Shown: positions 19,703 through 27,235 of the stretch, in pieces
Numbering within the stretch: the stretch's first letter is position 1
How the letters are laid out: every line of letters starts with the position of its first letter
Assembly: GCF_003334355.1 (NCBI RefSeq)
Contig: NZ_QOWP01000002.1
Length of the DNA: 64,000 nt
Strand: one strand, 5' to 3'
Source: Escherichia coli
GTDB lineage: Bacteria; Pseudomonadota; Gammaproteobacteria; Enterobacterales; Enterobacteriaceae
Position numbers and translations under genes: made by a program
Notes under the pieces: generated by a model
Databases searched by the model: none
Told to the model about the DNA's origin: nothing
Seen by the model: only the letters and a program-made list of their open reading frames with translations

Positions 19703-19870
19703 CTCTGCTTATTATTAAAAACAGGGTGAAACTTGCCCTGTTATAGCAACCCGCGCTACATATATCCACCCACACAGGCATATTGAGCGATTTTTGATAT
19801 TTATTCATCTCCTTACGCACTATATTCAGAGCAATAAGTTGCCTCTTTTCATCTTGATTCAGCACAACCT

Positions 19871-21112
19871 TTGCAACTAAAAGGAGCCCATGATGGTTAC
19901 AGTTGTCAGCAATTATTGTCAATTATCTCAAACCCAACTCAGTCAGACATTTGCAGAAAAATTTACTGTGACCGAGGAATTACTGCAGTCTTTAAAAAAA
20001 CAGCGTTATCCGGAGATGAAGAAAGTATTGAGTTACTGCATAATATTGCGTTAGGCTATGATGAATTTGAAAAAAAAGCTGAAGATATTCTTTACCATAT
20101 TGTTAGAAACCCAACAAATGAGACCCTATCGATTATCCGACTTATTAAAAATGCCTGTTTAAAATTATATAATTTGGCACATACCGCAACCAACTCCCAC
20201 CTTAAACCAACTGGTCCGGATAATTCAGATGTTCTCCTGTTCAAAAAGCTATTCTCCCCTTCGAAATTAATGACAATTATCGGTGATGAAATTCCTCTTA
20301 TATCTGAAAAACAGTCGCTTTCAAAGGTGCTTTTAAATGATGAGAATAATGAACTGAGTGATGGTACAAACTTCTGGGATAAAAATCGTCAATTAACCAC
20401 AGATGAAATAGCTTGCTATCTTCAGAAGATCGCCGCTAATGCAAAAAATACTCAAGTCAATTATCCTACTGGTCTCTACGTCCCCTACTCCACCAGAACT
20501 CACCTGGAAGACGCTCTCAATGAAAATATTAAGAGCGATCCATCATGGCCGAATGAAGTCCAGTTATTCCCCATAAATACTGGCGGACACTGGATATTAG
20601 TTTCGCTACAGAAAATAGTAAATAAAAAAAATAATAAACTACAAATAAAATGCGTCATATTCAACTCATTGCGTGCACTAGGCCATGATAAAGAAAATTC
20701 ACTTAAGCGTATTATTAATAGTTTCAATTCTGAACTCATGGGAGAAATGTCGAATAATGAGAATATAACAGTTCATTTAACTGAACCAGAGATAATATTT
20801 TTACATGCCGATCTTCAGCAATACTTAAGCCAAAGTTGCGGTGCATTTGTGTGCATGGCAGCCCAGGAAGTGATTGAACAAAGGGAAAGCAATTCTGACA
20901 GCGCCCCCTATACGTTATTAAAAAACTATGCTGACAGATTTAAAAAATATTCAGCAGAAGAGCAGTACGAAATTGATTTTCAACATCGACTGGCAAACAG
21001 AAATTGTTATTTAGATAAATATGGCGATGCAAATATCAATCATTATTATAGAAACTTAGAAATAAAAAACTCACAACCAAAAAATAGAGCATCAAGCAAA
21101 AGAGTAAGTTAA
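19871..21112 (+). CDS. elaD: ElaD-like CE-clan (Ulp/SENP-type) cysteine protease, deubiquitinase family; N-terminus or start uncertain, possibly frameshifted
   Basis: 413-codon frame with catalytic-type motifs (GGHWILVS histidine, SQSCGAFVC cysteine); very AT-rich; see finding on the 5' frame discontinuity. Confidence 0.8.
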
Positions 21113-21182
21113 CATCATTGTTAATTAATTCGACCAGTCAGCAAATATTTTGGCTGGTCGAACATAGTTTACTAAAAAGTCA

Positions 21183-22910
21183 TCACTGACTGATGTCAGT
21201 CACACCATCCGCCAGTTCAATCAGGCGAATAAATTCCGCCCTGTAACCCTGTGGATCTTCCCCTTTTGCCTGCTGAGCCCACTGTTTGATCTGCTGCCAG
21301 GAGGTATTGTTCAGGTATTCAGAACCGCGTAACTTTTGCCCATATGCAGCTACTGCTGCGCGAAAACGCATATCTTCAGAGGGCGCGTTTATTGTTGGCC
21401 CCAGCGGGAATTCAACTAACTGACTTTCTTTTCCCTGCGGGTATTTCCAGCGAATTTTTAACCAGGCCAGTTCTTTCGTTTTGTCCGATTTCGCTAATTT
21501 GTTATCCGGGGCATAGCGTAACTTATCAATTGATGCTTTTTGCCCGTTCAGCGTTAATTCGAATAACAACGTTATATGTTTGCCTGCGCCTATATCCCCT
21601 GCATCAACGTTGTCGTTATTAAAATGTTCCACCCGAAGTTGGCGCTTTTCATAACCAATCTGACGGTATTCCGTTACCCACGCGGGGTTAAACTCAATTT
21701 GCGCTTTGACATCTTTTGCTACGGTAATCAACATCTGCCGCATTTCACTATTCAATACTTTCTGCGCTTCAGAGAGGGTATCAATGTAGCTGTAGTTGCC
21801 GTTACCAACATCGGCAATTCGCACCATCATTGCCTCGTTGTAATTGCTATTCCCCACGCCAAACGTCGACAGAGTAACACCAGACTCCCGCTGTTTTTTG
21901 ACCATTGATTCAATCGATTTTGGATCGTCAATGCCAACGTTAAAGTCACCGTCAGTGGCTAATAAAATGCGATTGATGCCGCCCTTAATAAACCCCTTCG
22001 TCGCCTGCTGATAAGCCAGTTCCAGCCCGGCACCGCCATTGGTACTGCCTTCGGCATCCAGCGAATCAATTGCGGCATTAATTTCCGCCTTATGACTCCC
22101 GGAGATAGAAGGCAATGCAATACGGGAGTCGCCAGCGTAGGTCACGATGGCAATGTTATCCTGCTCACGAAGTTCTTTGACCAATAATTTCAACGAAGAC
22201 TGGATAAGTGGCAAACGTTCATCAGAAATCATTGAACCAGAAGTGTCGATAAGAAAGACCAGATTAGAAGCTGGTAACTCTTCACTTTTGCGATCTTTCG
22301 CCAGGATATCAACTTTCAGCAATGTTCGCTGTTCATTCCATGGTGCAGGTGCCAATTCGTAGCGCATAGCGAAAGGTATTGGCTTAGAGGCCGGAATAGA
22401 TTGTTTGTCTTTGATATCCCAATCAGACGGGAAATAATTGACTATCTCCTCCACCCGCACAGCGTCTGGCGGAGGTAACAGCCCTTGATTGAGGAAACGC
22501 CTTACATTCGCATAACTGCCAGTGTCAACGTCAAGACTAAACGTCGCCAACGGATTTTGCGCTACCTGCTTAACCGGATTATCATCGAACTGCTGGTAGC
22601 GAGCGGTTCCTGGATTTGCGATATGTGTAGCTTTTGCTTTAGCCGCTCTTGCAAATGTTGGCGCTTCCTGCAATCGCCCCTGTAAAGCCTGTTTGTCTGA
22701 ATATTGTTGCACTTCTTGCTGGGCCAAGGCTTTCGCGGCGGCGGCGCTTTGCTCAGCCTCTTTTATTGCAGCTTGCTGCGCGGCAAGCACTTGCTGCTCT
22801 GTGGGAGTACTGGGTTGTTGTTGCTGACTTTCCTTATTCTCAGGTTGCGGCCCACATCCTGACAAAATCAAACTACTCATAAGCAACATGATTATATTTT
22901 TATTTCGCAT
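21183..22910 (-). CDS. yfbK: Lipoprotein with von Willebrand factor A domain (YfbK)
   Basis: 575 aa; lipobox LILSGC; Q/A-rich linker; vWA MIDAS motif DTSGSM. Confidence 0.9.
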   Translation of the reverse strand: MRNKNIIMLLMSSLILSGCGPQPENKESQQQQPSTPTEQQVLAAQQAAIKEAEQSAAAAKALAQQEVQQYSDKQALQGRLQEAPTFARAAKAKATHIANPGTARYQQFDDNPVKQVAQNPLATFSLDVDTGSYANVRRFLNQGLLPPPDAVRVEEIVNYFPSDWDIKDKQSIPASKPIPFAMRYELAPAPWNEQRTLLKVDILAKDRKSEELPASNLVFLIDTSGSMISDERLPLIQSSLKLLVKELREQDNIAIVTYAGDSRIALPSISGSHKAEINAAIDSLDAEGSTNGGAGLELAYQQATKGFIKGGINRILLATDGDFNVGIDDPKSIESMVKKQRESGVTLSTFGVGNSNYNEAMMVRIADVGNGNYSYIDTLSEAQKVLNSEMRQMLITVAKDVKAQIEFNPAWVTEYRQIGYEKRQLRVEHFNNDNVDAGDIGAGKHITLLFELTLNGQKASIDKLRYAPDNKLAKSDKTKELAWLKIRWKYPQGKESQLVEFPLGPTINAPSEDMRFRAAVAAYGQKLRGSEYLNNTSWQQIKQWAQQAKGEDPQGYRAEFIRLIELADGVTDISQ

Positions 22911-23047
22911 ATAAAATCCTTTTAAATAAACTCAGGCACCAGACATAAAATATACTCTTTGTATAATCCTGCTAATCTTAATAAAATACAATATCGAAAC
23001 CCATAGCAAATAATGATTCAACAACGCAACCCATTAATAATTTGCAT

Positions 23048-26245: not shown

Positions 26246-26303
26246 AACATTTATATAAACAGATAAGCGGATGTTTACATAAATTTTTATGTGAAGGAAC
26301 ATG

Positions 26304-27152
26304 ATGAAACTTATTCCTCGCAGTAGTGATATTTCACCTGGCATTGATGGAATTTGCCCGGGGCCTTTTCCTCCGAACGGATTTACCGTACTTACAGATG
26401 CAGCATATGGTAACGGAGACTGTTTCGGTTTGTACTGGCCTATTGGTCAGGAGCATAAACTACCTATAGTGTGCGAAACGTACCATGACGAATGGCGAAT
26501 CGTACCTGCCTTTTCCAGCATTAAGAAGTTCGAAGAATGGCTGGAAGTGAATGATGATGATCCCCATGAAAATGGCATCAGCATCGAAGATCAAGACTTT
26601 GCAGCAAATCTCTTCCGTGTTGCTCGGAAATGTCTTTCAACGGGAAGGCTTGATGACGCACTGCCACTGTTACAGCGAGCAACAGAACAATTGCCTGAAG
26701 TCAGCGAATATTGGTTAGCACTGGCAATCCAGTATCGCCGATGTAAAAAAACAGAAGCTGCAGCACAGGCTGCGCTTAATGCTTATCTTGGCAATTGGGC
26801 ATTTGGTGTTCCTGACAATAAAGTCATTCATTTGCTGTCACAGGCCGCAGATGTCCCGAATTTCCAGGATGATCCTGTGATTCAGTGCATTAAAGAACAA
26901 GGATTAGATCTTAGCTTTGGAGGAACAAAGGAAAATAATAATTACCCCTTGATGCAGATGTGTGTTGATACTTATTTTGCGCAGAGAAAACCGCTTCAGG
27001 CATTAACCCTGTTACATAATTATGCCTGGATAATGTCCAGTGAAACGACTGCATTTCAGGAACGCTATGATTTTAATATCGATGAATGGCGGGCAAAATT
27101 CAGGCAGTTATGTTTAGAGTATTTTGGCGATAGTCGTACACAGTTCACTTAA
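26304..27152 (+). CDS. yfbP: Uncharacterised protein YfbP
   Basis: ORF 26301..27152 begins MM; 282-aa form assumed; soluble, no TM. Confidence 0.75.
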   Translation: MKLIPRSSDISPGIDGICPGPFPPNGFTVLTDAAYGNGDCFGLYWPIGQEHKLPIVCETYHDEWRIVPAFSSIKKFEEWLEVNDDDPHENGISIEDQDFAANLFRVARKCLSTGRLDDALPLLQRATEQLPEVSEYWLALAIQYRRCKKTEAAAQAALNAYLGNWAFGVPDNKVIHLLSQAADVPNFQDDPVIQCIKEQGLDLSFGGTKENNNYPLMQMCVDTYFAQRKPLQALTLLHNYAWIMSSETTAFQERYDFNIDEWRAKFRQLCLEYFGDSRTQFT

Positions 27153-27182
27153 CGCTCTGCGTCTATCTACTATCCCTTCTTT

Positions 27183-27212
27183 TTCAGAAAAACCGCCGAG
27201 CATGTCGGCGGC
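27183..27212 (-). terminator. Rho-independent terminator after nuoN (also faces yfbP)
   Basis: GC hairpin ccgccgag-catg-tcggcgg followed on the minus strand by a T-run. Confidence 0.6.
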
Positions 27213-27235
27213 TTTCTGACTTACAAAGTAACAGA

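Follow-up and report, generated by a model that had tools for sequence, protein, structure and literature searches.

The region described here is the stretch between rbn and nuoN of Escherichia coli, at positions 19703-27235 of a 64-kb window (the whole stretch of DNA analysed, 64,000 nucleotides of contig NZ_QOWP01000002.1), which carries the gene elaD together with yfbK, yfbL, yfbM, yfbN, yfbO and yfbP. The rbn|nuoN junction is probably a plasticity hotspot, and the 7.5-kb AT-rich stretch within it a cargo mosaic of at least four unrelated modules. These modules are elaD, yfbK-yfbL, yfbM and the adjacent yfbN, yfbO and yfbP (yfbN-O-P), and each has its own frequency, GC content at third codon positions (GC3) and degree of constraint. 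A partial or better match to the region is present in 5,425 of 5,426 complete E. coli genomes, with strain PSS-12 matching at ~100%. Its features are the following, with IS standing for insertion sequence:

19703-19796, no strand: rbn-proximal spacer, kept even where IS elements have replaced the entire block; one such genome matches positions 1-94 of the query only
19890-21112, plus strand: elaD (module 1), CE-clan deubiquitinase of the ElaD/SseL family, above the cut-off of NCBIfam NF008812
19994-20000, plus strand: A7 homopolymer, the elaD frameshift site; A8 in intact alleles, by alignment
21183-22910, minus strand: yfbK (module 2), predicted vWA lipoprotein with LSGC lipobox, Q/A-rich linker and vWF_A, VWA and YfbK_C domains
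22911-23047, no strand: divergent yfbK/yfbL spacer, GC 27% over 22911-23041
23048-24019, plus strand: yfbL (module 2), M28-family metallopeptidase with an N-terminal membrane helix or anchor; PF04389 on orthologues
24122-24625, plus strand: yfbM (module 3), cytoplasmic DUF1877 protein (Pfam E=3e-35) with a solved structure, PDB 1RYL
24627-27190, no strand: yfbN-O-P insertion/deletion segment (module 4), bounded by comparison with genomes that lack it
24898-25614, minus strand: yfbN, 238 amino acids (aa), with a tandem UBA-like N-terminus (residues ~16-76) and, toward the C-terminus, a conserved helical part
25615-25822, no strand: divergent yfbN/yfbO spacer, GC 32%
25823-26245, plus strand: yfbO, 140 aa, Pfam PF27222, isoelectric point (pI) 4.1, with a conserved C-terminal CWWD
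26304-27152, plus strand: yfbP, 282 aa, pI 4.8, with a small beta domain at the N-terminus and, after it, a TPR-like helical domain
27188-27215, minus strand: terminator hairpin of the nuo operon, CCGCCGA...TCGGCGG and then a T run, as read on the minus strand, kept in all variants compared

The composition changes in a sharp step at both edges of the block. Its GC content is 0.416 against 0.522 for the remainder of the window, and averaged over 500-bp windows it is 0.415 inside (n=15) as against 0.522 outside (n=112), a significant difference (Mann-Whitney p=3.4e-8). The lowest GC3 values are those of elaD (0.30) and yfbO (0.31), followed by yfbN (0.36), yfbP (0.37) and yfbL, yfbM and yfbK (0.44-0.47), with nuoN and nuoM at 0.71 and rbn, elaA and menF at 0.47-0.54 in the flanks; the spacers of the block have a GC content of 0.26-0.40. 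The AT-rich stretch claimed in a preliminary description of this DNA, and its difference from the flanking genes, are thus borne out by the GC, GC3 and spacer values. It has to be noted that a GC content below 0.45 is also found in eight 500-bp windows outside the block (within 1500-3000, 18500-19000, 42235-42735, 43735-44735 and 50235-50735), and the block is the largest, not the sole, AT-rich patch of the 64-kb window.

The seven named genes of the preliminary description are confirmed, with NCBIfam and Pfam agreeing on the ElaD/SseL, vWA, M28 and DUF1877 assignments, on TPR in YfbP and on a weak UBA-like signal in YfbN, and so are their alternating orientations (+,-,+,+,-,+,+ from elaD to yfbP), the acidity of YfbO and YfbP and the absence of an integrase, tRNA or flanking repeat. 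A tRNA scan of 15000-32000 found none, no meaningful direct or inverted repeats flank the block, and no recombinase was found among its seven products. An Rfam search of the block gave no match, and promoter-like and terminator-like sites are no more frequent in its spacers than in shuffled sequence. The seven proteins have no match among the PADLOC models (E<=0.01), nor have the neighbouring genes swapped in elsewhere, and the PHROGs phage families returned nothing relevant for the seven. The persistence of the rbn-proximal spacer in IS-replaced genomes places the left edge of the variable zone there, and the terminator hairpin marks the right one. As a separate observation, orthologues of rbn (window 18785-19702) match PF23023 ("Anti-Pycsar_Apyc1") in Pfam besides Lactamase_B, most likely through the shared metallo-beta-lactamase fold of RNase BN/Z.

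Variation at the junction within E. coli and across the Enterobacteriaceae

When presence is scored as coverage of at least 80% in the 5,426 complete E. coli genomes, the genes of the block differ widely in frequency. The gene yfbM is found in 5,356 genomes (98.7%), elaD in 4,187 (77%), full-length yfbL in 3,293 (61%) and yfbK in 2,514 (46%). The yfbN-O-P segment is present in 946 (17%) and absent from ~83%, and it is nearly monomorphic, 985 of 1,013 carriers having an identity of 99% or more. Universal conservation of the block in fixed synteny was looked for, and what was found is that at least 80% of it is present in only 931 of the 5,426 genomes and that other genera have other cargo at the junction. 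Six structural arrangements were read directly, with remarks on their frequency taken from an evenly spaced sample of 30 matches:

Arrangement 1: the full block
Arrangement 2: no yfbN-O-P, with yfbM 66 bp from nuoN
Arrangement 3: no elaD
Arrangement 4: yfbK cut down to a 45-aa remnant
Arrangement 5: loss of yfbK and a frameshift in yfbL, the type seen most often among the 30 sampled matches
Arrangement 6: rbn, IS1, an IS3 remnant and nuoN, all cargo being replaced

At the yfbN-O-P insertion/deletion (~24627-27190) no target duplication was found, and on its right side the terminator hairpin of the nuo operon persists. Many genomes without a full-length yfbL have a frameshifted remnant of it, and among the 30 sampled matches yfbK is never present without yfbL, with joint loss of both being frequent.

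The modules also differ in constraint, as measured by the ratio of nonsynonymous to synonymous substitution rates (dN/dS, Nei-Gojobori) in comparison with further lineages of E. coli and with E. albertii, E. fergusonii and Escherichia sp. E2748. This ratio is 0.03-0.07 for yfbM, 0.12-0.26 for yfbK, 0.10-0.40 for yfbL, 0.21-0.25 for yfbN, 0.33 for yfbO and 0.34-0.58 for elaD, with flanking genes at 0.11 or below. The genes of the block are all under purifying selection, which is most relaxed for elaD and resembles that of a housekeeping gene for yfbM. The whole segment is dispensable in the laboratory, since it is deleted in the reduced-genome strain DGF-298 (PMC10652928). Next to the block, in an elaD-lacking genome of the type of extraintestinal pathogenic E. 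coli, elaA (L004 1410-1871; L numbers denote surveyed loci) has 86% protein identity to its counterpart at window 18259-18720, with a synonymous divergence (dS) of 0.94, and elaB of the same genome is identical, which implies a sharp boundary of recombination immediately to the left of the block. In comparison with E. albertii and E. fergusonii, dS is 1.4-2.4 for rbn and elaA and 0.31-0.38 for yfbM.

Beyond E. coli, the junction was surveyed by a scan for Rbn, with one genome per species, followed by tblastn with all proteins of the block. In ~40 Enterobacteriaceae loci elaB-elaA-rbn and nuoN retain a constant order, and the gap between rbn and nuoN ranges from 55 bp to ~8 kb. Its occupants outside E. 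coli include:

Klebsiella metagenome-assembled genome (MAG), an Enterobacter and Siccibacter: a gap of 55-95 bp
Most Citrobacter and Enterobacter: a gap of ~1.1 kb with one cheV-like gene
K. oxytoca (L049:10973-17941) and K. indica (L050:11229-17233): a fimbrial-like operon of ~7 kb, recognised by the sizes of its open reading frames (ORFs) only
Citrobacter sp. R56 (L028:12010-13919): a PtuA/PtuB-like pair of the Septu or retron-Ec78 effector type
Pluralibacter: an IS4 transposase and SfnG
Superficieibacter: yfbK-yfbL-yfbP-yfbN, toward nuoN
Another enterobacterium: yfbK-yfbL-yfbO, toward nuoN
E. fergusonii: yfbK-yfbM, a gene for 191 aa and yfbN, toward nuoN
Escherichia sp. E2748: yfbL-yfbM-yfbN-yfbO and a gene for a 409-aa protein unrelated to YfbP, toward nuoN

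The cheV-like gene (CheW and receiver domains, ~334 aa; L019:10983-11987 and equivalents, L097:11984-12967) lies directly after rbn in most Citrobacter, Enterobacter and Kosakonia and also in E. fergusonii; it is absent from E. coli and may be the ancestral occupant of the junction. The fimbrial-like operons have ORFs of 849 aa, 220-238 aa and several of 170-183 aa, which are chaperone-usher-like sizes. The pair in Citrobacter sp. R56 consists of a PtuB-like HNH endonuclease of 196 aa and a PtuA-like ATPase of 438 aa, and a pair of ORFs of 199 and 440 aa in a Pseudocitrobacter MAG (L032:8545-10467) is likened to it by size only. Of the block's own genes, yfbK-yfbL occupies the junction in Escherichia, E. 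albertii, Superficieibacter, the Pseudocitrobacter MAG and one further enterobacterium, and elaD and yfbM are found there only in Escherichia among the sampled genomes.

The products of the four modules

The ElaD protein scores 400.7 bits against NCBIfam NF008812 (cut-off 250) and matches SseL at E=1e-30, with 106.9 bits against the SseL-specific model, which is below its cut-off of 624. The preliminary description had counted elaD among uncharacterised genes, which needs correction, and in this window the gene is not intact from its canonical start. The deubiquitinase activity of ElaD from E. coli K-12 has been demonstrated (PMC1847702), and a strain survey detected the gene in 66.6% of 530 strains (PMC12575377), a frequency which agrees with the gene-by-gene counts given above. 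In the window, the A7 run in place of A8 shifts the frame after ~35 codons, so that the catalytic part no longer shares the frame of the canonical ATG at 19890, and the annotation of the near-identical PSS-12 record by the NCBI Prokaryotic Genome Annotation Pipeline calls the gene "frameshifted". A 413-aa ORF from an upstream TTG at 19871 keeps the catalytic part open. As judged from its reading frame, elaD in this window is inactivated from its normal start by the homopolymer frameshift. This most AT-rich gene of the block is represented by a rare allele, with at least 99% identity to it in only 35 of 4,473 genomes, unlike the adjacent yfbN-O-P segment, which is 99.9% identical to that of K-12, and the juxtaposition of the two points to recombination within the block.

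For YfbK, the N-terminus MRNKNIIMLLMSSLILSGCG reads as a lipoprotein signal with the LSGC lipobox; the protein has vWA matches, and PF12450, PF00092 and PF12034 are recorded on its orthologues. The AT-rich spacer between yfbK and the divergent yfbL presumably holds the promoters of both genes, and the two promoter-like sites, at 22940-22967 and 23034-23061, were recognised by consensus match only. The joint occurrence and loss of the two genes suggests, and does not prove, that YfbK and YfbL are a functional pair in the cell envelope. In the type strain E. albertii NBRC 107761 (L018:12889-13902), a stop within the tblastn match divides yfbL into two ORFs (229 and 99 aa) and makes it a pseudogene, with yfbK and yfbM intact. 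The YfbM family has 298 representatives at 50% identity, and relatives elsewhere are stand-alone genes amid housekeeping operons, a context which is uninformative. A single mention of DUF1877 was found in the literature, concerning a gene in place of autB in Neisseria lactamica. What makes yfbM of interest is that it is near-universal and constrained like a housekeeping gene, yet has no assigned function.

The N-terminus of YfbN has mutually consistent matches to UBA-type domains (UBA_4, E=0.003; NAC UBA, E=0.0016; TNK1 UBA, E=0.09-0.13), all of which are below significance. The gene yfbO, previously read as a 158-aa ORF, is corrected to 140 aa with its start at 25823, and its product has 26 D+E against 5 K+R residues; a confident structure model of YfbO gave no fold match among solved structures. 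A conserved partner gene of yfbO was sought by comparing 175 neighbours all against all and was ruled out, 128 of them being without a relative among the rest, and such clusters as emerged derived for the most part from contigs that are nearly identical. For the N-terminus of YfbP, a SUKH/SMI1 domain was considered on the motif "GNGD...FSS...F..WL" and rejected, with no Pfam match at E<=10 and an hhalign probability of 0.6% against a small SUKH profile.

All three families are rare and patchy in distribution, with 16 clusters for YfbP, 19 for YfbN and 60 for YfbO among 5.8 billion. Full-length relatives of YfbP are scattered over Flavobacteriia, Planctomycetota and Iodobacter and are also on 26 conjugative plasmids of the Morganellaceae Providencia, Proteus and Morganella. 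YfbO-like genes are found on Priestia plasmids amid genes for DUF6678, DUF4304 and DUF3888 proteins that end at a recombinase; a literature search on these three families found no papers. A 365-kb record filed as an E. coli plasmid (CP137936.1) has yfbO and yfbP at 100% identity and is probably a chromosomal fragment or a chimeric assembly, not a true plasmid copy. In a Logan contig (DRR532630, L099:878-8103) eleven small same-strand ORFs form a cargo array with a YfbN-like gene (33-39% identity) at its end; most of them have no Pfam match, the exceptions being NUDIX, an alpha/beta hydrolase and a weak DUF1801; an integron-like cassette array was considered for this run and ruled out, as it contains no attC-like repeats. 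In Leminorella grimontii (L006:3806-7761), a YfbP homologue is divergent from three genes of 385, 460 (DUF6384) and 471 aa, otherwise without annotation, and is followed by a run of unannotated genes, which may be another accessory cluster.

Origin of the mosaic and competing explanations

The independent segregation of the modules and their differences in GC3 and constraint show that the stretch is not one island, and the preliminary description, which saw a single block wedged in between rbn and the nuo operon, does not stand in that respect. Its further claim of foreign, accessory DNA, drawn from composition, is supported by the composition together with the presence/absence data. The claim of an old origin fares unevenly: it fits yfbK-yfbL and yfbN, which occupy the same junction in other genera, and does not fit the nearly monomorphic yfbN-O-P segment or the swapping of the nuoN-side cassette between Escherichia lineages. 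In the likely model of a plasticity hotspot with mosaic cargo, each module would be gained, lost or swapped on its own, and remodelling of the locus by IS elements and internal deletions is seen directly. Since no mobility gene, att site or target duplication lies at the module boundaries, we infer that turnover would proceed by homologous recombination in the conserved flanks, together with illegitimate deletion and insertion. Silencing of the H-NS type would probably keep the AT-rich DNA quiet. Nothing indicates a joint function of the seven genes.

Several points weigh against this model. The lack of mobility genes, att sites and target duplications holds for every module boundary, the finding of yfbK-yfbL, and of yfbN, at this site in several genera argues for the antiquity of those modules, a single ancient acquisition followed by losses only could yield part of the pattern, and the experimental leads on yfbK to yfbP are limited to screen hits in two preprints. 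The corresponding alternative is a single ancient island that was acquired once before Escherichia diverged and is now eroding, with the variation reflecting differential loss. It would account for yfbK-yfbL at the junction in Escherichia, E. albertii, Superficieibacter and Pseudocitrobacter, for yfbN adjoining nuoN in E. fergusonii, Escherichia sp. E2748 and Superficieibacter, for the mobility genes not being found at the locus and for the many variants that are plain deletions or pseudogenes. We nevertheless regard it as distinctly unlikely, given that elaD and yfbM are at the junction only in Escherichia among the sampled genomes, that in sister lineages the place of yfbP is taken by an unrelated gene for 409 aa, or that of yfbO by one for 191 aa, and that GC3 (0.30-0.47) and dN/dS (0.03-0.58) vary between modules. 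The wholly different cargo in other genera, including a defence pair and fimbriae, and the plasmid-borne relatives of YfbP and YfbO elsewhere also argue against it. A further explanation, that nothing but a mutational bias of the locus or weakly expressed native genes, and not foreign origin, lies behind the AT-richness, could draw on the same absence of mobility signatures and on the near-universal presence of yfbM in E. coli. It is contradicted by the presence/absence polymorphism within the species and across genera, by homologues on plasmids and in distant phyla and by the sharp composition step at both edges, and has scarcely any probability left. Almost as improbable is a host-directed "ubiquitin" system, in which the ElaD deubiquitinase would work with the UBA-like YfbN and other products, suggested by the fact that ElaD is a bona fide deubiquitinase (PMC1847702) and by the repeated weak UBA-type matches of YfbN. 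In such a system elaD (77%) and yfbN (17%) would not be expected to segregate independently, as they do, nor yfbN to be found without elaD in Superficieibacter, E. fergusonii and E2748; moreover, elaD is frameshifted in this window and the UBA matches of YfbN are all below significance. UBA-like three-helix bundles are also present in purely bacterial proteins such as EF-Ts.

A different question is what module 4 might do, and here it is tentatively proposed that its proteins may bind and neutralise another protein in the style of an immunity protein or inhibitor. With the same reserve, yfbN-O-P, and perhaps yfbM, could be taken as orphan immunity-type cassettes against toxins of competitors or of abortive infection, without a cognate toxin. 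The more specific proposal that YfbO (PF27222), YfbN and YfbP form an unrecognised toxin-neutralising family of orphan immunity proteins or inhibitors of abortive infection, with cassettes moving between chromosomal hotspots and plasmids, is somewhat more doubtful. One genome of 7.8 Mb has a YfbO homologue (56% identity) behind genes for an LHH toxin and two SUKH proteins, with Tox-REase-5, Imm52 and SUKH genes upstream, and in a metagenomic locus (L153) an SMI1/KNR4 gene (SUKH-1, E=9e-17) lies immediately upstream of YfbO. Frequently YfbO is encoded within same-strand runs of 100-200-aa ORFs, and on Priestia plasmids it lies amid small DUF genes ending at a recombinase; among the structural relatives are TPR proteins and fusions that bear the name SMI1/KNR4, and the yfbN, yfbO and yfbP families are shuffled like cassettes at one locus. 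The strong acidity of YfbO (pI 4.1, 26 D+E against 5 K+R) would also be in keeping, nuclease inhibitors often being acidic. On the experimental side, yfbN appears in one preprint, as an indirect lead, among the genes that block the retron toxin RcaT when overexpressed, yfbO being included there for its linkage to yfbN, and in another the yfbO and yfbL mutants of the Keio collection were N4-resistant and were complemented. If true, a toxin-neutralising role would link the SUKH/LHH neighbours, the blocking of RcaT and the N4 phenotype of the yfbO mutant.

There is also evidence on the other side. The RcaT result comes from figure legends only, in which yfbO is also named among the trigger plasmids. 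Pfam scans of 146 and 116 YfbO neighbours showed no enrichment of Imm, SUKH or Tox families, as judged from the 20 commonest families with crude ORF calling, a procedure by which rare singletons may be hidden. A SUKH gene adjoins YfbO in only 2-3 of ~60 loci, in one of them with an LHH toxin as well, and most of ~60 metagenomic loci have no toxin neighbour; at the E. coli locus no toxin gene lies near yfbN-O-P, and YfbO, YfbN and YfbP have no match to an Imm family in Pfam-A. Overall, an immunity or inhibitor role for module 4 appears doubtful, with a limited share of probability left to it.

For the mosaic model, the practical consequence is one of caution: the seven genes should not be treated as one candidate "system", and the modules should be studied separately, their frequencies and constraint showing which of them deserve the work. 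The residual interest lies in the rare YfbN, YfbO and YfbP families, in the constrained orphan YfbM and in the junction as an address for cargo. The first are mobile cassettes of rare occurrence, for which two screens independently report a phenotype, and yfbK-yfbL is an old envelope pair that is frequently lost jointly. The rbn|nuoN junction is a constant place at which Enterobacteriaceae can be mined for small accessory or defence cargo, and the Septu-like pair in two other genera (in the second by ORF size only) illustrates its usefulness for that purpose.

Comparison with known systems

The region is the same locus as the annotated elaD-yfbP region of E. coli, with identical RefSeq names, from which the window strain differs by its rarer, A7-frameshifted elaD allele. 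By its score above the ElaD/SseL equivalog cut-off, ElaD is related to the family of the Salmonella pathogenicity island 2 effector SseL; unlike SseL, it has no dedicated linked secretion system in K-12-type strains, and it is frameshifted here. Of the marks of a classical genomic island, the atypical composition is present, whereas an integrase, tRNA or att site with direct repeats is not.

Polyimmunity loci, or orphan immunity genes of polymorphic toxin systems, were reportedly described by Zhang, Aravind and colleagues in 2012. Such loci differ from yfbN-O-P, which has no recognised Imm or SUKH domain, no toxin or immunity enrichment and no toxin at the E. coli locus. What yfbN-O-P shares with them are small, acidic, predicted cytoplasmic proteins, the shuffling of cassettes and plasmid-borne arrays of small genes, to which YfbO adds an occasional adjacency to SUKH and LHH toxin genes.

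Genome plasticity regions, or integration hotspots between core genes, are a concept from the comparative genomics of E. coli. The present one differs in having no tRNA, integrase or prophage and in its very small modules of 0.5-2.5 kb, some of them being old residents. In common with them it has conserved syntenic flanks, unrelated cargo by lineage, presence/absence polymorphism, low GC content and IS activity. The elaD-yfbP region is thus already known, its genes being named and partly studied, and is an ordinary plasticity hotspot.

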